Below are positions 11,253-52,358 of a stretch of 64,000 nucleotides of DNA, in pieces. Under the pieces are notes generated by a model. The model ran no database searches and was not told where the DNA came from. It worked only from the letters and a program-made list of their open reading frames with translations. The position numbers and the translations under genes are program-made. Positions within the stretch are counted from its first letter, which is position 1, and every line of letters starts with the position of its first letter. Source of the stretch: Candidatus Iainarchaeum sp. (GTDB lineage Archaea; Iainarchaeota; Iainarchaeia; Iainarchaeales; JAZDDZ01); assembly GCA_043809245.1 (NCBI GenBank), contig JAZDDZ010000047.1, forward strand, positions 43,223 to 107,222, in the 5' to 3' direction.

Positions 11253-11362
11253 TGGCGGGCGGGGAGGGATTTGAACCCTCGACCTACAGCTTAGGAGGCT
11301 TGCAAGAAATGCAGAAAAAACTGTCACCTCATGTTGCCCTATCCAGGCTAGGCTACCCGCCC
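11253..11362 (-). tRNA. tRNA-Arg(CCT) with a 32-nt intron at 29/30 (11300..11331); CCA encoded
   Basis: GGGCGGG/CCCGCCC acceptor; ACA|GC-CTCCTAA-GCTGT anticodon arm; GAGGG-TTCAAAT-CCCTC. Strict bulge-helix-bulge (GCAA/TTGC helix, CA|T and AA|G bulges). Confidence 0.92.
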
Positions 11363-12288
11363 AGCAATTCAATCATCTTACGTGACCTTATTGCCTTATT
11401 GGGGTGGTAAAAATCTATGTTCTGCAAGAATTTAAAAAGCATCTCCTTATTTCTAATTCTTAGCTCGTAAGTATCAGATATACGGTCAGAAGAGGGGGAT
11501 TTTGCCACCCGCTTGTAAATTTTAAGGGTCTCGATGCCAAAGTTTAGAAGGGTCTCTTTAATTTCTTCTATAAACTTTTTATCCTTGAAAGTGAGATCTA
11601 TGAAAAGCTGCTTGGCTTTTTTTGGATTTTTTGGTAAAGTTCCATCAGAATCAAATAAACCGGCTAAGTAATATTTTAGGACTGATTTATCATTTTTAAT
11701 TAGGCCCGGAATCCTAAGATTTTCTTTTACTCCCCGATTTATCCCGAATATATTATGCAAAAAAGAATTCACAACAATGCTCCTTAGCGGGAGACAAGGG
11801 ATAAATCTTTTAGATAATGTCGATTTAACGCTTATTATTTTCCCCGATAAACCAAAAAGATATTCTGAAATGGAATTAACTTTTTCCAACTGTTCCTTGT
11901 ATTCATCAGAAAAAATAACCCGCTTTCTATCAGAAGTTAAACAACCAGCCCCTTGCAAATACCCGATGAAATACGCTAAATTCGGATCAAGTTGTTTAGG
12001 CAGGTGCACCTTCTTATTTTTTCCCGTAAATTCAACATTATCCAAAGCATAAACTTTAGAAAAAATCGATGAATCAATATTTTTAGCAAATGATTTAAGC
12101 ACTCTGATTGAACAACAAGGTTTTGTTGTCAAATGCCTATGGTAATAGCCTTTTGAAATGTTTAGGAGATCAGCTGCTTGTCTACAAGTTAGACCCGAAT
12201 TCATATGGCTTTCCTTTAGAATTTTAGCAATGCCGAAAATCATCACATTACTGTCAAGTTCTTCATAGTAATCTAGAAGTTTAGCCAT
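11353..12288 (-). CDS. Free-standing HTH + LAGLIDADG homing endonuclease; stop codon inside tRNA-Arg
   Basis: N-terminal HTH; LAYFIGYLQGAG and YLAGLFDSDG; ends GGC GGG TAG, which is tRNA nt 2-10. Confidence 0.85.
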   Translation of the reverse strand: MAKLLDYYEELDSNVMIFGIAKILKESHMNSGLTCRQAADLLNISKGYYHRHLTTKPCCSIRVLKSFAKNIDSSIFSKVYALDNVEFTGKNKKVHLPKQLDPNLAYFIGYLQGAGCLTSDRKRVIFSDEYKEQLEKVNSISEYLFGLSGKIISVKSTLSKRFIPCLPLRSIVVNSFLHNIFGINRGVKENLRIPGLIKNDKSVLKYYLAGLFDSDGTLPKNPKKAKQLFIDLTFKDKKFIEEIKETLLNFGIETLKIYKRVAKSPSSDRISDTYELRIRNKEMLFKFLQNIDFYHPNKAIRSRKMIELLGG

Positions 12289-12361: not shown

Positions 12362-12925
12362 CTAAATTAAAATTGTTAACGCTGCAGCGCAGACAAGGGG
12401 AATCATGAGGTTGTCGTCAACAGGCAAGTATTCTGCGAGCATTCCGATTACTGCAACAATTATCGCGGCGCTTAATGGAAATAGCTGCGCCAAGAGCGCG
12501 GCTGAAACGATTATTCCCGCGATTGTCCCCTCAAGCGTGTAAGGCGCAACTGTTTTGATTCTCCCAATTGCCTTTCCTGCAATTGTGGAAATGGTGTCGC
12601 CGTAAACAGAAACCAATAGCGCGCCGAAAACGATTTCCTGCCCTGGAAAAAGAAAGACAAGCAGGAAAAAACCAAGCAAAAAGTACAGCGCGCCGTAGCC
12701 CGGAAAATGCTTTTCCTTTTCCCTGCCGAATTTTTGCACAAAAAAATTTATTGCAGGAATATTCGCGCCCCTTTTCACAAACCACGAGATAATTATTCCT
12801 GTGAGGAAAATCGCGGCAACAGCCAAAAGAAGCAATTGCCTTTCAATGAAAGCCGCGGCCAGAAGAAAAATTGTGCCAAGCACCGCGTGGAACAGCTTGC
12901 GTTTTGTTTCCCTCATTAAAGTCAT
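12362..12925 (-). CDS. Dolichol/phytol kinase-like (CTP-transferase family) membrane protein
   Basis: RKLFH, GDTISTIAGKAIG, TLEG, DDNLMIP. Confidence 0.8.
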   Translation of the reverse strand: MTLMRETKRKLFHAVLGTIFLLAAAFIERQLLLLAVAAIFLTGIIISWFVKRGANIPAINFFVQKFGREKEKHFPGYGALYFLLGFFLLVFLFPGQEIVFGALLVSVYGDTISTIAGKAIGRIKTVAPYTLEGTIAGIIVSAALLAQLFPLSAAIIVAVIGMLAEYLPVDDNLMIPLVCAAALTILI

Positions 12926-20714: not shown

Positions 20715-20786
20715 GCCGCGGTAGCACAACGGCAATGCAGCGCACTCGTAATGCGCAGACTGGGGGTTCGATTCCCCCCCGCGGCT
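20715..20786 (+). tRNA. tRNA-Thr(CGT)
   Basis: GCCGCGG/CCGCGGC-T acceptor; GCGCA-CTCGTAA-TGCGC; GGGGG-TTCGATT-CCCCC. Confidence 0.92.
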
Positions 20787-20860
20787 TTTTCTCTGCTTTT
20801 ACCTTGTGCCCTGCCAGTTCAGAGACAAAGAATAAAAATTGATTGCTCCTTTTTTATAAT

Positions 20861-21856
20861 ATGAATAATAGGGTTAGTTTTAGCTCTAAAAAAGAAGCTT
20901 CAAATTTTTTTGAGTGCGCTAGAAACACGGGAAAGTTCAATTCATGGCGGGAACTCGCTGTTTTTCTAAATGTGCGTATTGGAAAATTGTGGGATTACAG
21001 GAAAGGGACATATTCCCTGCCTTCGGGCAAATTCGAGGCTCTGATAAATCTCGTGCCATCGCGCATGCGAAAAAGGTTCGAAAATGCCGTAACAATAATG
21101 CCCTCCAACTGGGGCCAATCAAAGGGCGGCTGCATTACTTATTCTAGACATAAAAAAATTTTCGATGACGGAAGGGCTAAAGCCAGGGAAAACAGGTTAT
21201 TAAATGCAAAATACGACTTTGACTCAGCCATGCCTTTAAATGAAAAGCTTTGCGAATTTTTAGGCGCATTTATAGGAGATGGTTTCACAAACGCTTACAA
21301 CGGGCATTACATGACCCAGTTTGCAGGACATTCCAAGTTGGATGCGGACTATTACAACAATTTGATTATTCCGTATGCGAAGCAATTATTCGGCTTTGAA
21401 AAGCCATATATAAGAACAAAAGCCAATGCGTTATGGGTTACTTTTTATTCAAAAAGATTATTTGAATTTATGACTAAAAGGTTCGGGTTTCCTGCAGGGA
21501 AAAAATCCGCTTCAGTTTTAATACCTGGAGAGGTATTGGATTCAGACAAGACCAACATTTGTGCGCTGTTGAGGGGGTTATTCAATACTGATGGTGGAGT
21601 TCACTTTGACAAACGAAAAATTTACAAAACACCTTACATGCGAATCGAATTACACATGAAAAATGAACGGATCATCGAACAAGTTTATATTGAGTTAATA
21701 AGATTGGGAATTAATGCCAAAAGAAATAGTTCAAGCACGAGAGTGCAGATAAATTCAGAACAAGCAGTTTCAACATATCTCAATCAAATCGGGTTTTCCA
21801 ATAAAAGACATCTGGACAGAATTAGTTCCAGGGGCGTTTCCAATTCCACCTCATAG
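20861..21856 (+). CDS. Free-standing HTH + LAGLIDADG homing endonuclease; stop overlaps a tRNA 3' half
   Basis: SWRELAVFL HTH, NWGQSKGG, FLGAFIGDG, LRGLFNTDG, IGFSN.RH. Confidence 0.87.
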   Translation: MNNRVSFSSKKEASNFFECARNTGKFNSWRELAVFLNVRIGKLWDYRKGTYSLPSGKFEALINLVPSRMRKRFENAVTIMPSNWGQSKGGCITYSRHKKIFDDGRAKARENRLLNAKYDFDSAMPLNEKLCEFLGAFIGDGFTNAYNGHYMTQFAGHSKLDADYYNNLIIPYAKQLFGFEKPYIRTKANALWVTFYSKRLFEFMTKRFGFPAGKKSASVLIPGEVLDSDKTNICALLRGLFNTDGGVHFDKRKIYKTPYMRIELHMKNERIIEQVYIELIRLGINAKRNSSSTRVQINSEQAVSTYLNQIGFSNKRHLDRISSRGVSNSTS

Positions 21857-21890
21857 CAGGGGGTCGGGGGTTCAAATCCCTCTCGGGGCT
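21855..21890 (+). pseudogene. Isolated tRNA 3' half (Thr-like, U73)
   Basis: A-GCAGG-GGGTC-GGGGG-TTCAAAT-CCCTC-TCGGGGC-T followed by a T-run; no intact adjacent 5' half. Confidence 0.75.
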
Positions 21891-21917
21891 TTTTCATTCA
21901 GATTAAAGGGATTTCTA

Positions 21918-40065: not shown

Positions 40066-41214
40066 ATGGAAGATAAAAGGCTGAAATTTCAGCCCGGCAA
40101 GCAGAGGGCTTTGTTGGAGTTATTTTTTTACAAGCACGGTTTCACCCAAAGAGAATTAGCCGGAAGATTAGGGGTATCAAAAGGCACAATAGCAGCATAT
40201 TTCACGGAGAAAAACAACCTATTGCTTTCAACTTTCCAAAAGCTTGAATCAATTGATCCCGCTGTAAAAGGATATGAAAAATTCATAGAAAAAGAATTGC
40301 CTCTCGGTTGGGGCGCAAAAAAGGGCGGTATCGAAAGGGCAAAACTTATTCCAAACAAGAAAACCTATTATGAAGGTATAAGGCATATAAAAAAATTGAA
40401 AGAATTAGCTAACGCTAGGAAAGAAAAAGAAAAAATAGAGAATCACCCTTTAGTTGAGGAGCTAAAGAAGGCTAATGTTGATTTGGAAGCCGTACTGGCA
40501 GTTTGCCTTTTAACGGATGGCTCACTCTGCATTAAAGGAAAAAATCTTAGGATTAGTTACACAACTAAAGACCATATTCTAGAAAAGCTGCTTTTTTCAA
40601 TGATGAACGAACTGTCAGCCAGGGTTCCAGGAATTGGTTTTTCACAAAGTGCTAATACCGTAAGGGTGAGTGATGACGCGCTAGCGAAAAAATTACTCAA
40701 CCTCAGCCCGAATTTCAAAACAAGCCCAAGCAGACATGAGACCAACGAGGATTATCTTAAAGAACCGCAGCCAACCATACGCTTTCTTTCAAAATCCAAT
40801 CAACAGACAAAAAAATGGGCTTTGAGGTTTGCATTCACTGCGGACGGCTACATCAGCAAGGCGGCAAATGGAAAAACAGAATTGGGGCTCTCCTGTTATC
40901 ACACGAATCTTGCAATTGAATGGAAACAGATTATAGAAGAATTTGGCTTATCCTGCACGCTTGCCCAAAACAAAAATTCTTGGTGCGGCATATCTGGAAT
41001 CAGAATTCAAAACATGGATTCTATTGGAAAATTTTTTCAGCTTGGCGGGTTCATAGATGGAGTTAAAATATCCAATAAAAGCAAAAAATTCAGGGGGCTG
41101 GCAAAAAACGAGCTGTTGACACAGATTGTGGAAATGGGAAAGGGAGGACTCGAACCTCCGACCCCCCGGTTATCAGCCGGATGCGCTAGCCACTGCGCCA
41201 CATTCCCAAAATAA
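40066..41214 (+). CDS. Free-standing HTH + LAGLIDADG endonuclease reading antisense through tRNA-Ile
   Basis: FTQRELAGRLGVSKGTI HTH, WGAKKGG, VCLLTDG, RFAFTADG. C-terminus MGKGGLEPPTPRLSAGCASH is the tRNA antisense. Confidence 0.8.
   Translation: MEDKRLKFQPGKQRALLELFFYKHGFTQRELAGRLGVSKGTIAAYFTEKNNLLLSTFQKLESIDPAVKGYEKFIEKELPLGWGAKKGGIERAKLIPNKKTYYEGIRHIKKLKELANARKEKEKIENHPLVEELKKANVDLEAVLAVCLLTDGSLCIKGKNLRISYTTKDHILEKLLFSMMNELSARVPGIGFSQSANTVRVSDDALAKKLLNLSPNFKTSPSRHETNEDYLKEPQPTIRFLSKSNQQTKKWALRFAFTADGYISKAANGKTELGLSCYHTNLAIEWKQIIEEFGLSCTLAQNKNSWCGISGIRIQNMDSIGKFFQLGGFIDGVKISNKSKKFRGLAKNELLTQIVEMGKGGLEPPTPRLSAGCASHCATFPK
41135..41207 (-). tRNA. tRNA-Ile(GAT)
   Basis: GGGAATG/CTTTCCC-A acceptor (one T-T mismatch); CCGG-CTGATAA-CCGG; GGAGG-TTCGAGT-CCTCC. 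Confidence 0.92.
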
Positions 41215-41380: not shown

Positions 41381-42325
41381 ATGAAGTTCTCCATTTTTGA
41401 TGTAGATAACCAATGGCTTGCAGAAAAAATCTGCATTGATGGAATAAACCAAGAAGCTAAAGACATTATAAAAAGTTTGGGCGGACCATCAAAAACCTGC
41501 AAACTTTTAAACTGCAAATATACGCGATTAAAAGAATGGTCTAACGGCAGGTCGCCCATACCTTTACATGTTTTGCTAAAAACGCTTAATGCATGCGCCG
41601 ACAGTTTTAAGGAAAAAATCAAAAACAAGATTGACTCAAAAGAAATTAACCTCAAGGCACAATACTCGCCGCACAAAGTAAAATTTCCAAAGAAAATGAC
41701 TCCTAACTTGGCTTACATAACAGGAGTAATTTTAGGGGACGGACATCTAGCCAGCAGCAAAGATAATGAAAAGGGAAACTGGGCAATATCTGTTTGCTTT
41801 GACAATTTAATGCATCTCAAGGTCTACAATCAATATATTAAGGAAATATTCGGCATCGAGCCTAAATATTATTTTTGCCAAAAGAAGAATTATTATGTTT
41901 CCTATTTTGCATCATTGACTGTCCACTGGTTTTTAAGGAATTTCCTCGAAATTCCAAATGGTAATAAAAGCAGCCTAATCCAAATGCCCGAAGTAATTGC
42001 CAATGGAGATGAAAAAATAATTTCAGCCTTCATTAGCGGGCTATTTGATTCCGATGGCACAATAACCAAAAACGGGGAACTTAAATTTGCAAGCACAAGC
42101 GAAAGAATTGTACACCAGGTTAAGGCTGCGCTAGCTTGTTTCTCAATTAAAAGCTATCATTCAAAATGGCTTAAATCGGAAAAATACAAAATGCTTCACA
42201 CAATCAGAATAGGCAAGGAATCAATTCAATCATTCGAGAAAACAATCGGATTTAAGCATCCAAGGAAAAAGCAGCTATTAAAAATGTTTTCAAATAAGAC
42301 TTTAGTTAATAGCCCCGTCGTCTAG
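41381..42325 (+). CDS. Free-standing HTH + LAGLIDADG endonuclease; stop codon inside tRNA-Gln
   Basis: LAYITGVILGDG, FISGLFDSDG, IGFKHPRK; ends AGC CCC GTC GTC TAG, which is tRNA nt 1-15. Confidence 0.88.
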   Translation: MKFSIFDVDNQWLAEKICIDGINQEAKDIIKSLGGPSKTCKLLNCKYTRLKEWSNGRSPIPLHVLLKTLNACADSFKEKIKNKIDSKEINLKAQYSPHKVKFPKKMTPNLAYITGVILGDGHLASSKDNEKGNWAISVCFDNLMHLKVYNQYIKEIFGIEPKYYFCQKKNYYVSYFASLTVHWFLRNFLEIPNGNKSSLIQMPEVIANGDEKIISAFISGLFDSDGTITKNGELKFASTSERIVHQVKAALACFSIKSYHSKWLKSEKYKMLHTIRIGKESIQSFEKTIGFKHPRKKQLLKMFSNKTLVNSPVV

Positions 42326-42429
42326 CGGCCAAAGCAATAAACGTATTTTCGTTAAAATTATGGTTGTTGCTGCCGAAAGGATGGCAGGCTCTGGACCTGC
42401 GGACAGGAGTTCGAATCTCCTCGGGGCTA
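42311..42429 (+). tRNA. tRNA-Gln(CTG) with a 46-nt D-loop intron (42332..42377)
   Basis: AGCCCCG/CGGGGCT-A; GCAGG-CTCTGGA-CCTGC. BHB: CGGC/GCCG helix, CA|A and AA|A bulges, AGCAATAA/TTGTTGCT intron stem. Confidence 0.9.
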
Positions 42430-47752: not shown

Positions 47753-48727
47753 TTAAAAGTATTTTATTTTGTGCACTTTGTGGAACAGGAAGTAATCGTA
47801 GTCCTTCACTTTTCCGGGGAATTTTGCGCTGAATTTTTTGACAAAGCGCTCCATTTCCTCGGGCCTTTCAGCCAGGATTTCAATTTCCAAGTCTGCGAAG
47901 CTGATTGACTTGTCGATGTAGATTGTTGAAGGCTCCGCGAGGGCAAAGGAAACCATTTCAGCGTATTTGTCCAGGTCATTTAACTGAAAATTTATCTTGT
48001 ACATTGCGAGCCCCATTTTCTCCAGGTTCAGCCTTGCCCTGAATCCTTTAATAATTCCGTTTTTTTTCAGGTTTTTCATCAGGAGCTTTATGCTTGAAAC
48101 GGAAATGCCTGTTTTCTTTGCGAGTTCAACAGTAGGCAGCCTTGCGTTTTCGCTTAAGGCGGAGAGGAGCTTTTTTTCCGAATCAGAAATCGAAATCGAG
48201 CCAAATGTTTCCCCCACAACCTGCACCGGCCTATCAAGGATTTTTTCAGGCACAAGGAATGCCGCGGCACAGTCATGCACTTTCGTGTAAGGGCAAACCA
48301 CGCTTTTAAGCATAAATTTTTTGTATTTAGAGGTTATTTTTTCCCAGAATTGCTCAAACTCATATATGTTCTTCATGTAGGAGACAAAGCCGAAATTGAA
48401 TTCCCCTGAAATGCTGCCAACCCACCAAGTGAATGGGCTTGAAGTAATTGCTTCAACGAATCCTTTTTCCTCCTCTACCGTATCAAACCTTACCCTCAGG
48501 TAAATCCCGATTCCCTGGAAGCCAAGCAAAGGCTTGTCAATCACTGTATAAAAAGAAACAATGAATTCTTCCCTTAGAAGCCTGTTAATGCGGTAATTTA
48601 CCACATTTTTATCCATTGCCATTTTTTTTGCAATCTGCGAGTTTGACTGCCTTGAATTGCAGTCAAGCTCGAAAAGAATAAGCCTGTCCTTTTCATCCAA
48701 ACCACCAAACTTTGCCTGTTTAGCCAT
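47753..48727 (-). CDS. Tandem Lrp/AsnC-family regulator
   Basis: LDEKDRLILFELDCNSRQS..VNYRINRL and LSENARLPTVELAKK. Confidence 0.85.
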   Translation of the reverse strand: MAKQAKFGGLDEKDRLILFELDCNSRQSNSQIAKKMAMDKNVVNYRINRLLREEFIVSFYTVIDKPLLGFQGIGIYLRVRFDTVEEEKGFVEAITSSPFTWWVGSISGEFNFGFVSYMKNIYEFEQFWEKITSKYKKFMLKSVVCPYTKVHDCAAAFLVPEKILDRPVQVVGETFGSISISDSEKKLLSALSENARLPTVELAKKTGISVSSIKLLMKNLKKNGIIKGFRARLNLEKMGLAMYKINFQLNDLDKYAEMVSFALAEPSTIYIDKSISFADLEIEILAERPEEMERFVKKFSAKFPGKVKDYDYFLFHKVHKIKYF

Positions 48728-51215: not shown

Positions 51216-51278
51216 AAATAAATGCTATTTTTCCAAATTAATAGGAAACAAAGTAGTTAAAATGCTTGGTGATTAAGA

Positions 51279-52358
51279 TTGGAAAATCCTATTTTGACTT
51301 ATAACGAATTCATAATACATTTCCCATCAATTAAGCCGAAAAGCAAGAGGTTAGCCAACAAACTGTTGCCACTGTATCCTTCCACTGAACTTGCCCAGAT
51401 AACTGGCGCCTTGTTGACCGACGGGCATGTCGACTGGTATGTTTCTGACGGCAGTCCGAGAACAAGGAAAATTATTTTATACTCAAGCAATGAAGAGGAA
51501 TGTGAGTGGTTTTCTGGTTTGGTCAAAAAAGTTTTTGCCGTTGAACCAAAAATTACAGCCTATTTGCCAAAATACGGGCAATTCAAGTTGCAGCCCTACA
51601 AAGCGGTCTTAAATAATTCAGTCGTTGCCCAAACAATGATTCTTTTAGGGGTTTGCGCGGGAGACAAAACAAAATGCGGGTATAAGGTTCCAGAATGGAT
51701 TCTGAATGGAAACAAGAAGATTAAAGCTGCATTCCTGAAAACTGTTTTTACTTTCGACGGTTCAAAACCATACAAGAGAAAAAATACGTGGACTATCAGC
51801 TATAGCACAACCGTGACAAAAGAAGCCCTGCCTAACGGCTTTTTGCTTTTCAAACAGCTTAACCAACTTTTAAAAGAATTCGGCGTAACTTTCAGTTCAA
51901 TTCCAACAGCACACTTGAAAGAGAATGGGAAATTCATGCTAATATCATCCGCATCATCTAGAGAGTCAATTACTAATTTTTTACGGAATTTGGGCTATCT
52001 TAACGAAAACAAGCAAAGAAGGCTGGCTTACGCGGTTGCTGAAATTTTTAAGCTCGCAAGAATACGCTCTCCAAAAAATAACCACTTGTTAAGCAAATTC
52101 AAAAAAATTTTTGGAACAGACAAAGAAACAGCTTTTTTTGTTAATAAGCTCCTTAAAACAAAGTATACAAAAAGGCAATTTGAGCATTTCCGGAGAAACG
52201 AAACAATGGCGCCTTTGGAAATACTTGCCTTAGCGCTGAAAAAAACCAAAACAAAAAATTATTTGCCTGACTGGGCAAAATTTTTGCACAGCCATTATCT
52301 TTCTCTAGTTCCGTTGATGAATTCTTCAACCATTTCTTTGGCTGCAGATGGAGAGTAG
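51279..52358 (+). CDS. Free-standing LAGLIDADG endonuclease overlapping the ino1 3' end in antisense
   Basis: LAQITGALLTDG, FLKTVFTFDG, LGYLNENKQ; HTH-like C-terminus; 64-bp tail-to-tail overlap. Confidence 0.82.
   Translation: MENPILTYNEFIIHFPSIKPKSKRLANKLLPLYPSTELAQITGALLTDGHVDWYVSDGSPRTRKIILYSSNEEECEWFSGLVKKVFAVEPKITAYLPKYGQFKLQPYKAVLNNSVVAQTMILLGVCAGDKTKCGYKVPEWILNGNKKIKAAFLKTVFTFDGSKPYKRKNTWTISYSTTVTKEALPNGFLLFKQLNQLLKEFGVTFSSIPTAHLKENGKFMLISSASSRESITNFLRNLGYLNENKQRRLAYAVAEIFKLARIRSPKNNHLLSKFKKIFGTDKETAFFVNKLLKTKYTKRQFEHFRRNETMAPLEILALALKKTKTKNYLPDWAKFLHSHYLSLVPLMNSSTISLAADGE

Follow-up and report, generated by a model that had tools for sequence, protein, structure and literature searches.

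Three genes follow one another on the minus strand at the locus considered here, which lies in the window, i.e., the whole stretch of 64,000 nucleotides that was analyzed from a Candidatus Iainarchaeum contig: a conserved membrane-protein gene (187 aa, 12362..12925), a gene of 311 aa (12288..11353) which, judging from the ORF list, Pfam, a structural model, fold matches and orthologs, would encode a free-standing homing endonuclease with an HTH domain and a double LAGLIDADG motif, and a tRNA-Arg(CCU) gene interrupted by an intron. Positions 1–73 of the tRNA occupy 11362..11256, as indicated by a match to Rfam RF00005 over exactly this interval (46.5 bits, E 9e-7), by the cloverleaf read by hand and by the orthologous genes, and the CCA end is encoded directly after G73 (11255..11253, minus strand), the whole gene covering 11253..11362. 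Exon 1 (tRNA positions 1–29, 31 nt, 11362..11332, from the hand parse and a BHB script) is separated from exon 2 (tRNA positions 30–73, 44 nt, 11299..11256, from the BHB script) by a 32-nt intron at site 29/30 (11331..11300), all on the minus strand. In the hand reading, the acceptor stem is GGGCGGG/CCCGCCC, the D arm is GCCU/GGGC, and the 5′ strand of the anticodon stem, ACA|GC, pairs with GCUGU and encloses the loop CUCCUAA, which gives the anticodon CCU (Arg). Automatic detection of this gene was poor: ARAGORN in default mode reported two tRNAs in the window, the one at 11362..11256 not among them, and with introns allowed it mis-called the gene as tRNA-Glu and proposed spurious kilobase “introns” elsewhere, so that its output was discarded for tRNA-Arg(CCU). 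A candidate tRNA promoter in the A/T-rich 3′ end of the nuclease ORF was also dropped, its spacing being wrong.

The BHB script folds the exon-intron junctions into a central 4-bp helix (GCAA/UUGC) flanked by two 3-nt bulges, CAU and AAG, each to be cut after its second base; the inner helix has 6 bp and the outer one 3 bp, which makes a strict hBHBh′ motif at 29/30. The 32-nt strict BHB intron in the anticodon stem that the preliminary description had recognized is thereby confirmed. Eleven further genomes of the order have introns at this position, and the central helix of these introns changes in step with the exon (GCAA/UUGC, GCGG/CCGC, GCAC/GUGC, CACC/GGUG), which speaks for a functional motif and against a chance pairing. 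Removal of the intron from the sequence leaves a standard cloverleaf, parsed by hand, with the stem ACAGC/GCUGU and the loop CUCCUAA, and the product aligns with intron-less orthologs. Non-canonical archaeal BHB introns at 29/30 and 30/31 are already known, and the present one agrees with them in position and in the BHB requirement, while the portion of the review concerned with these sites lists them mainly for Crenarchaeota and Nanoarchaeota and the locus described here belongs to an Iainarchaeum-type DPANN archaeon (Yoshihisa, 2014; PMC4090602). The intron would be removed by the tRNA splicing endonuclease. No gene for this enzyme (PF01974, TIGR00324) was found in the 55 contigs of the assembly, which is 91.8% complete; a single gene of about 170–200 aa is present in 27 of 30 relatives. 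The comparison of two DNA runs with the locus yielded no join across which the intron or the ORF is missing, and one contig of 270 nt, about 94% alike, keeps the tRNA-intron-ORF layout. The runs also contain many foreign tRNA 3′ halves; in run X2, contigs from other organisms align with the exon 2 part only and diverge at 11300.

The upstream ORF matches Pfam LAGLIDADG_3 (PF14528, E 1e-16), and alignments place on it a first LAGLIDADG motif at residues 104–116 (LAYFIGYLQGAGC, 11941..11979, minus strand) and a second one at residues 207–217 (YLAGLFDSDGT, 11638..11670, minus strand). About the first 90 residues (12019..12288, minus strand) form a putative N-terminal helical/HTH domain, with a weak Pfam HTH_31 match at residues 29–68 and helices at residues 21–80 of the AlphaFold model (pLDDT 93.6). 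The top fold matches of the model are intein- and intron-encoded LAGLIDADG enzymes, with a Foldseek probability of 1.00 for the TliVMA intein, I-Tsp061I, PI-SceI and I-DmoI and a further match to PI-PfuI, all of them spanning only about 195–220 residues of the nuclease. Pfam, the model and the presence of both motifs agree on a predicted single-chain double-motif LAGLIDADG fold, which the protein would share with I-DmoI, I-Tsp061I, PI-PfuI and the TliVMA intein, its best matches in sequence and fold. Unlike the archaeal enzymes encoded in introns or inteins, it carries its own N-terminal HTH domain, and its gene stands outside any intron or intein and outside the target gene, at the edge of a tRNA.

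The acidic residue that ends each LAGLIDADG motif is kept in the family overall but not in this copy. At position 114 (codon 11949..11947) this copy has Ala where 10 of 11 orthologs have Asp, while D213 and D215 of motif 2 are invariant in 11/11 orthologs and D215 is retained here. Because the first catalytic Asp is replaced (D114A), the enzyme of this genome is probably crippled, and its gene is probably a decaying copy or else encodes a nicking or binding-only version. The ORF is intact despite the substitution, which could mean retained function instead of decay. A domesticated protein could be envisaged on this ground, i.e., a DNA- or RNA-binding factor, such as a WhiA-like regulator or a maturase-like helper, with a role in transcribing or processing the neighboring tRNA; the N-terminal HTH would suit such a role, the fold matches include WhiA and the LAGLIDADG maturases bI3 and I-AniI, and the tRNA would have either its promoter inside the ORF or a common transcript with it. 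We nevertheless consider domestication very improbable, given that the gene is patchy (13/196 genomes) and present or absent between congeners, unlike a host function, and that the catalytic Asp is kept in nearly all orthologs (10/11 for motif 1 and 11/11 for motif 2). Moreover, BHB splicing requires no maturase.

The TAG stop codon of the nuclease ORF (11355..11353, minus strand) coincides with U8-A9-G10 of the tRNA, so that the two genes overlap by 10 nt and 21 nt separate the stop from the intron, in good agreement with the distance of about 20 nt estimated at first; the two genes are neighbors, as had been stated, but the stop actually lies inside the tRNA, at its positions 8–10. Orthologs of the nuclease (E<=1e-20) occur in 13 of the 196 genomes surveyed in the order, which comprises DPANN archaea of the Iainarchaeum/Diapherotrites type, and in 7 of its 32 GTDB families. 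The 3′ flank is readable at 12 loci, 11 of which abut tRNA-Arg(CCU) and one tRNA-Val(GAC), with the orthologs located either upstream of tRNA-Arg(CCU) or convergent with it; eight further orthologs, from Woesearchaeota, Micrarchaeota and other archaeal records, all read into tRNA-Arg(CCU) (8/8). At 10 of 11 loci in the relatives the ORF stops inside a tRNA or at most 21 nt from one. Since 11 of the 12 orthologous loci abut the same tRNA, the adjacency is not due to chance; what stands beside tRNA-Arg is a genuine LAGLIDADG gene, free-standing and linked to this particular tRNA gene, and the preliminary description is supported on this point.

The membrane-protein gene, for which no family was matched in Pfam or NCBIfam, lies beside tRNA-Arg(CCU) in 28 of 33 loci examined by tblastn, and the comparison with empty sites indicates that it is the ancestral upstream neighbor of the tRNA and that the nuclease gene was inserted between them. 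Between the congeners G130 and G131, about 1 kb containing the ORF is present in the former and absent from the latter, with flanks 67% identical and tRNAs 95% identical, and the same presence or absence of the ORF distinguishes G059 from G097 and G133 from G134 and G137. In addition, one clade of the nuclease tree (support 100/98) mixes upstream, convergent and inverted arrangements. A gene that is sporadic (13/196 genomes) and present or absent at one conserved site, with three sets of empty sites, has the distribution of a mobile element, from which we infer a tRNA-dedicated, free-standing homing-endonuclease gene; a tRNA-directed homing role is plausible because the gene is tied to the tRNA, patchy, and present or absent at syntenic loci.

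The mobile unit may be larger than the nuclease gene. It could consist of this gene together with a fused tRNA-Arg(CCU) allele that replaces the resident tRNA gene, any introns of the allele being carried along and having no part in immunity. The overlap between ORF and tRNA, which precludes a clean separation of the two, would fit such hitch-hiking, as would the inversion of the G055 tRNA with respect to the membrane-protein gene, where it is co-oriented with the nuclease gene, unlike in the congener G123, and the tRNAs of the congeners G059 and G097, which are only 76% identical with flanks of 74–78%. However, the tRNA-Arg(CCU) genes of the nuclease-free congeners G134 and G137 are also only about 80% identical (counted by hand), and because this tRNA diverges fast even between nuclease-free congeners, a low identity alone is no proof of replacement; furthermore, the tRNAs of G130/G131 and of G133/G134 are 94–95% identical despite the difference in the presence of the nuclease. 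A possible trace of the process is found on another contig of this genome (C10), where a nuclease ORF lies between a tRNA-like gene and a 26-nt duplicate of a tRNA 5′ end. This layout recalls the mobile-element model of tRNA gene disruption proposed for the tRNA-Thr(GGU) of Caldiarchaeum subterraneum, in which the entry of a mobile element at a tRNA gene is tied to the gain of an intron and to a remnant of the tRNA 5′ end that stays behind (Sugahara et al., 2012; PMC3293823). The C. subterraneum element encodes a recombinase instead of a LAGLIDADG nuclease, and the tRNA-Arg locus differs from it in having no leftover fragment: inspection of the sequence revealed no duplicated tRNA-Arg fragment flanking the ORF in the window. 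Replacement of the whole allele is on balance an unlikely explanation of the locus. The tRNA-like gene after the C10 nuclease ORF has no match in Rfam and no clean solution in the BHB script, and the same applies to the insert in a tRNA-Gln(CUG)-like gene of the window (42311..42429).

The cyanophage S-PM2 pair F-CphI/psbA is an example of collaborative homing. In this process, a free-standing endonuclease is combined with an endonuclease-less intron (Edgell et al., 2010; PMC2988022). The locus resembles such systems, as outlined in the relevant part of that review, in that a free-standing nuclease gene adjoins a gene whose intron, a few tens of nucleotides away, contains no ORF, and it departs from the phage cases described there in that its intron is of the protein-spliced BHB type and not a group I ribozyme, its host is an archaeal chromosome, and intron and nuclease are mostly found apart. 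If the partnership suggested in the preliminary description existed, the nuclease would cut intron-less tRNA-Arg(CCU) around positions 25–33, and the 29/30 intron would split the site, protect the allele that carries it and, when the break is repaired, be copied along with the nuclease gene. The close spacing is favorable, since an intron beginning 21 nt from the ORF stop falls well inside a typical co-conversion tract.

Whether intron and nuclease travel together was evaluated on alleles recognized by D-arm/anticodon patterns, which replaced a tRNA-Arg(CCU) covariance model that matched all tRNAs in 151/151 genomes and did not discriminate isoacceptors; the patterns detect tRNA-Arg(CCU) in only 78 of the 196 genomes, and the counts refer to these pattern-detectable alleles. 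An intron at 29/30 or 30/31 is present in 12 of the 196 genomes; it is itself patchy, and the situation that had been named as speaking against the partnership, an intron present throughout the lineage whether or not the nuclease is there, is literally not the one observed. An adjacent LAGLIDADG ORF accompanies 2 of the 12 intron alleles, and one more (G179) has a 17-codon relic of the nuclease; conversely, an intron at either site is found in 2 of 11 nuclease-linked alleles. For alleles found by the same D-arm pattern (12 with and 66 without the insert), Fisher’s test of intron against nuclease gives p values of 0.60 for all configurations and 0.17 for the same strand only; a value of 0.04 requires that the relic be included. 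Six orthologs are convergent on the other side of the tRNA, none of whose alleles (0/6) has an intron at 29/30 or 30/31, and in a Woesearchaeota order 8 of 9 intron alleles found by pattern have no LAGLIDADG ORF within 1.5 kb. The proposed co-occurrence, once checked, therefore shows no clear dependence (2/12, 2/11, Fisher p 0.17 to 0.60), and the partnership at this locus is not borne out by it; what stands of the original proposal is a nuclease tied to the tRNA and mobile, with its patchy distribution and empty sites. An association of the D stem GCCU/GGGC with the nuclease, as a distinct allele class, was also considered and abandoned, for the nuclease-free G107 and G110 share this D stem.

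Some link is hinted at by the alleles linked to a nuclease on the same strand across DPANN, 8 of 14 of which, read by eye, have a non-canonical intron in the tRNA 5′ half, from the D-loop to the 5′ region of the anticodon stem, compared with 12 of the 78 pattern-detectable alleles of the order with a 29/30 or 30/31 intron; the p of 0.04 obtained with the G179 relic points in the same direction. In favor of collaborative homing are also the allele of G179, in which the intron stands beside the relic, and genus g48, in which G055 has the nuclease and two introns and G123 has neither. Moreover, nuclease genes are expected to vanish faster than introns, and therefore alleles with the intron only are no strict refutation. 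Against it stand 9 of 11 nuclease-linked alleles without the 29/30 intron, the convergent copies, all six of which adjoin alleles free of such an intron, the D114A substitution in the enzyme found here, and the identity of the intron-less, nuclease-linked tRNA of G130 with the nuclease-free tRNA of G140. Taken together, these data make collaborative homing, or an immunity function of the intron, rather unlikely at this locus.

The account that we favor, with some reservation, is that two separate features meet here, an ordinary archaeal BHB intron, though non-canonically placed at 29/30, and a selfish LAGLIDADG gene dedicated to tRNA-Arg(CCU). The latter would have inserted between the membrane-protein gene and the tRNA, its ORF ending on U8-A9-G10 of the tRNA, and its family would spread by invading the tRNA-Arg(CCU) locus of genomes devoid of the nuclease gene. 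Members of the family keep the shortest possible distance to the tRNA, whichever side they are on, and always face it with the C-terminal end, presumably because the tRNA gene, or its boundary, is what the enzyme recognizes and because close linkage maximizes co-conversion. A target wholly inside the tRNA would fail to explain self-immunity in G130, since the nuclease-free tRNA of G140 is identical to the nuclease-linked one of G130. This account is built on what was observed, namely the anatomy, the linkage of the family with its tRNA, its scattered distribution, the empty sites and the absence of co-occurrence; that the tRNA locus is cleaved, that the gene homes and that the intron is spliced are its conjectural steps. 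Residence of the nuclease would need no intron, the intron would be independent of the nuclease, and their meeting here may be mostly a coincidence of two patchy traits, joint inheritance possibly helping. A close parallel is SegB of phage T4, a GIY-YIG homing endonuclease whose gene stands free within a tRNA gene cluster and which targets the tRNA region, with the result that the neighboring tRNA genes are preferentially inherited (Edgell et al., 2010; PMC2988022, Table 1 and related text). Here too a free-standing homing-endonuclease gene would lie between genes of a tRNA region and putatively target the tRNA, while, relative to SegB as portrayed in those sections, the enzyme is of the LAGLIDADG type, the host is cellular, the ORF overlaps the tRNA, and the subfamilies are each tied to one tRNA identity.

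The gain and movement of short archaeal tRNA introns are an open question. In the section of the review that treats intron transposition its mechanism is described as unknown, and the term “homing endonuclease” does not occur in this review (Yoshihisa, 2014; PMC4090602). It is conceivable, though improbable, that free-standing LAGLIDADG genes of DPANN are tRNA-specific homing elements, fused to the tRNA genes they target, and that the non-canonical BHB introns of the 5′ half are an immunity device spread together with them; if so, they would provide a DNA-level vehicle for archaeal tRNA introns and the first collaborative-homing pair outside phages. Independently of the introns, free-standing LAGLIDADG genes each dedicated to one tRNA, and pressed against it, in many cases with an overlap, appear to be a widespread habit, undescribed in the literature searched, in which no paper was found on LAGLIDADG genes abutting archaeal tRNA genes. 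As such elements would break and repair tRNA loci repeatedly, they are a candidate cause of tRNA allele replacement, of leftover fragments and perhaps of intron gain, and the family may represent natural meganucleases with tRNA genes as putative targets. In the Woesearchaeota order, none of 10 LAGLIDADG frames of the intein type has a tRNA at its 3′ end. Among the free-standing LAGLIDADG ORFs of genome G000, 6 out of 10 are no more than 100 nt away from a tRNA or tRNA-like gene (tools called four of these neighbors, and the other two were identified by hand), when about 0.9% would be expected by chance.

The gene at 11362..11256 (–), identified as a tRNA by its match to the Rfam model (46.5 bits) and absent from the default-mode output of ARAGORN, is built on an acceptor stem GGGCGGG/CCCGCCC, a D arm GCCU/GGGC, an anticodon stem in which ACA and GC, separated by the intron, pair with GCUGU, a variable loop of 5 nt, a T arm GAGGG/CCCUC and a 3' end consisting of G73, an encoded CCA and then a T run; the anticodon loop CUCCUAA gives the anticodon CCU and thus tRNA-Arg(CCU). 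The 32-nt intron (11331..11300, –) lies between positions 29 and 30, and in our script for bulge-helix-bulge (BHB) geometry it shows a central helix of 4 bp (GCAA/UUGC), two bulges of 3 nt (CAU and AAG), an inner helix of 6 bp and an outer one of 3 bp. It is a strict hBHBh' motif, yet at a non-canonical position; folded without constraints, the whole precursor has z = –3.85. The preliminary description, which had seen a strict 32-nt BHB intron in the anticodon stem about 20 nt from the endonuclease stop codon, is correct in both respects, the measured distance being 21 nt. The review by Yoshihisa (2014; PMC4090602) lists introns at both 29/30 and 30/31; it regards the way introns transpose as unknown and nowhere speaks of homing endonucleases.

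Upstream of the tRNA, on the same strand, lies the nuclease ORF (12288..11353, –; 311 aa), whose TAG stop is formed by U8-A9-G10 of the tRNA, so that the two genes overlap by 10 nt. The protein matches Pfam LAGLIDADG_3 (E 1e-16), with a weak N-terminal HTH match, and an AlphaFold model built from 11 orthologs is confident (pLDDT 93.6). Its best matches among solved structures are TliVMA and PI-PfuI (endonuclease parts of archaeal inteins), PI-SceI, I-Tsp061I and I-DmoI (archaeal intron enzymes) and WhiA; it is a double-LAGLIDADG enzyme in a single chain, extended at the N-terminus by a helical domain of ~90 residues. In LAGLIDADG enzymes the last acidic residues of the two motifs bind the catalytic metals. 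Across the 11 aligned orthologs motif 2 (LFDSDG) is invariant; position 114, the final acidic site of motif 1, holds Asp in 10 of them and Ala in the source genome, G000 (YLQGAG vs YLQGDG). With Ala at this metal-binding position the G000 copy, although its frame is intact, is probably unable to make a double-strand break.

Orthologs of the nuclease (E≤1e-20, 38–57% identity) occur in 13 of the 196 genomes of the order, in 7 of its 32 families. One locus runs off its contig; among the 12 readable ones, with anticodons read by hand, 11 adjoin tRNA-Arg(CCU) and one tRNA-Val(GAC). A further 8 orthologs, from records titled Woesearchaeota, Micrarchaeota or "archaeon", all read into a same-strand tRNA-Arg(CCU) (8/8), so the family has crossed DPANN phyla and kept its tRNA partner. 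Relative to a conserved gene for a 187-aa membrane protein, which neighbors tRNA-Arg(CCU) in 28 of the 33 loci examined, three arrangements can be defined: membrane gene, nuclease and tRNA on one strand (G000, G130, G059 without the membrane gene, and G041 with a degraded nuclease); membrane gene, tRNA and a convergent nuclease (G132, G133, G165, G172, G173 and G054); and nuclease, tRNA and an inverted membrane gene (G055). In all loci the C-terminal end of the ORF points to the tRNA, and its conserved part ends no more than about 12 nt from the edge of the tRNA. In a maximum-likelihood tree of 20 orthologs, G130, G000, G055, G132 and G133 form one clade (100/98 support) that holds all three arrangements, and the position of the gene around the tRNA therefore changes over short times. 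Presence and absence are clean among congeners: between G130 and G131 ~1 kb with the ORF is missing while the flanks are 67% and the tRNA 95% identical, and the same is seen for G059 vs G097 and for G133 vs G134 and G137. Because the partner is constant and the ORF abuts it tightly, C-terminus first, on either side, we infer that the tRNA gene or its boundary is the target of the family. As the nuclease-free tRNA of G140 is identical to the nuclease-linked tRNA of G130, self-immunity, at least in G130, is suggested to stem from an insertion that disrupts a boundary-spanning site, or else from lost activity, rather than from changes within the tRNA. As an alternative to collaborative homing (below), the nuclease gene and a tRNA allele fused to it could move as one cassette, with introns merely carried along, as the inverted tRNA in G055 would favor. 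The spacer between the membrane-protein gene and tRNA-Arg(CCU) is also a general insertion hot spot, with other small genes in place of the nuclease gene at L036, L052, L053 and L056 (loci of G115, G053, G179 and G024), among them the tail of a RelE-like toxin (G053) and an antisense ORF resembling an acetyltransferase (G179).

A pattern running from U8 to the anticodon, with 24–54 additional nt from position 25 to the loop, found tRNA-Arg(CCU) with an insert in 12 of the 196 genomes; 18 further matching genomes, whose hits were judged by eye to be other tRNAs or not tRNA at all, were discarded. In 8 of the 12 the BHB script puts the insert at 29/30 (in G071 with only 3 of the 4 central pairs), and in 4 at 30/31. 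A LAGLIDADG ORF lies within 1.5 kb of the insert allele only in G000 and G055; in G179 a relic of 17 codons remains from the conserved nuclease C-terminus (E 1e-5 in a tiny search space), and in 6 of the other 9 the site is empty, the membrane-protein gene ending 30–60 nt before the tRNA. The insert-free version of the pattern matched 66 genomes, six of them nuclease-linked (G059, G041, G130, G165, G172 and G173). The co-occurrence of intron and nuclease that collaborative homing, proposed in the preliminary description, would lead one to expect is thus not borne out (2 of 12; Fisher's exact test, p = 0.60 for all arrangements and 0.17 for same-strand ones); counting the G179 relic gives p = 0.04, and even this is weak, since relatives are not independent. 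In a Woesearchaeota order sample of 301 genomes, 9 carry such an insert (G410 left out of the count), one of them beside a LAGLIDADG frame that is cut off where the contig ends, and of two true orthologs one lies beside an intron-less and the other beside an intron-bearing allele. The best-supported reading is that two patchy features coincide in G000: an ordinary non-canonical BHB intron in tRNA-Arg(CCU), and a putatively selfish, free-standing homing-endonuclease gene dedicated to this locus and probably crippled here. Collaborative homing of intron and nuclease is possible, since nuclease genes are expected to be lost faster than introns, and would agree with the excess of 5'-half introns beside same-strand copies: a non-canonical insert between the D loop and position 31 is present at 8 of 14 same-strand ortholog loci (by eye, and with the matched background confined to the order), which counts against full independence. 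The review that describes collaborative homing also lists, in its Table 1, phage T4 SegB as a free-standing homing endonuclease in a tRNA region (PMC2988022).

The adjacency to tRNA genes is not confined to this family. In the G000 assembly LAGLIDADG_3 matches 29 times, mostly within very long frames (inteins), and there are 10 free-standing LAGLIDADG ORFs, of which 6 lie ≤100 nt from a tRNA or tRNA-like gene, a proximity shared by ~0.9% of the genome; no tRNA is near the other 4. Four of these tRNAs were called by tools, namely tRNA-Arg(CCU), tRNA-Thr(CGU), tRNA-Ile(GAU) and tRNA-Thr(GGU); the other two, one resembling tRNA-Gln(CUG) and one lying on contig C10, are tRNA-like genes recognized by hand from their acceptor, T arm and anticodon arm. 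In relatives, the ORF stop lies inside or ≤21 nt from a tRNA in 10 of the 11 best-matching loci. In the Woesearchaeota sample ARAGORN places a tRNA 0–43 nt from the stop in 9 of 19 free-standing frames, with 4 more beside intron-rich tRNAs by eye, and at the 3' end of none of 10 intein-type frames; an Rfam re-scan confirmed the tRNA at only 1 of 10 loci re-scanned, and one further ARAGORN call, at locus L132 and with an 876-nt "intron", was distrusted. Such endonuclease genes are described by Nawrocki et al. (2018) in archaeal BHB introns, group I introns, inteins and free-standing elements; a search through the main texts of articles found none that treats LAGLIDADG genes placed against archaeal tRNA genes.

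Three further HTH-LAGLIDADG ORFs of the window show this habit. The second (20843..21856, +; 337 aa) starts 57 nt after tRNA-Thr(CGU) (20715..20786), and 10 nt past its stop is an isolated tRNA 3' piece (the T arm with the 3' acceptor strand, ~21866..21893) with no matching 5' acceptor strand within 2.6 kb, which may be a relic of nuclease-gene insertion. The third (40066..41214, +; 382 aa) is convergent with tRNA-Ile(GAU) (41208..41134, –) and crosses the entire antisense tRNA before its stop. The fourth (41381..42325, +; 314 aa) has its TAG stop in the D region of the tRNA-Gln(CUG)-like gene (42311..42429), which has a ~46-nt insert in the D-loop region, was missed by ARAGORN and Rfam and gave no clean intron solution in the BHB script. 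A LAGLIDADG-containing ORF of 361 aa (51273..52355; G000 C47:94495..95577) is an exception, no tRNA being detected within ~500 nt. Contig C10 (38843..40121, L080) carries, in this order, a copied tRNA 5' end of 26 nt, a LAGLIDADG ORF of 308 aa and a tRNA-like gene that shares this 5' end and contains several inserts. Such an order agrees with the mobile-element model of tRNA disruption and would likewise favor joint movement of nuclease gene and tRNA allele; a recombinase-bearing insertion has been linked with the gain of an intron and a leftover piece of tRNA (Sugahara et al., 2012; PMC3293823). At the Woesearchaeota loci L117, L120, L125, L131 and L133 a paralogous LAGLIDADG subfamily lies ~40 nt upstream of a tRNA-Gly(UCC) with several inserts, some apparently inside the T loop, and a TTTATAAA box stands between ORF and tRNA.

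G000 is the sole member of its GTDB family in an order of 196 species genomes of ~1 Mb each; its assembly comprises 1.48 Mb in 55 contigs (91.8% complete). No tRNA splicing endonuclease gene was found in these contigs with PF01974 and TIGR00324, despite at least a dozen intron-bearing tRNA genes; 27 of 30 relatives have one such gene of ~170–200 aa, and that of G000 is presumably in the unassembled part. On C10, tRNA-Gly(GCC) and tRNA-Gly(UCC) (~42032..42203 and 48040..48155), with no nuclease gene nearby, have D-loop inserts at the same site that are clearly alike in sequence (UUUUCACACGGGC...CUGGUGGAAAACCCAUAAA), a likeness that suggests intron copying between the isoacceptors. Finally, a near-identical stretch of ~45 nt, ending in a copy of the T arm and 3' acceptor, follows both tRNA-Arg(UCG) and tRNA-Ser(UGA) at a distance of ~180 nt (contigs C16, ~36585, and C31, ~3810), and these look like attachment-site duplications of related integrated elements.
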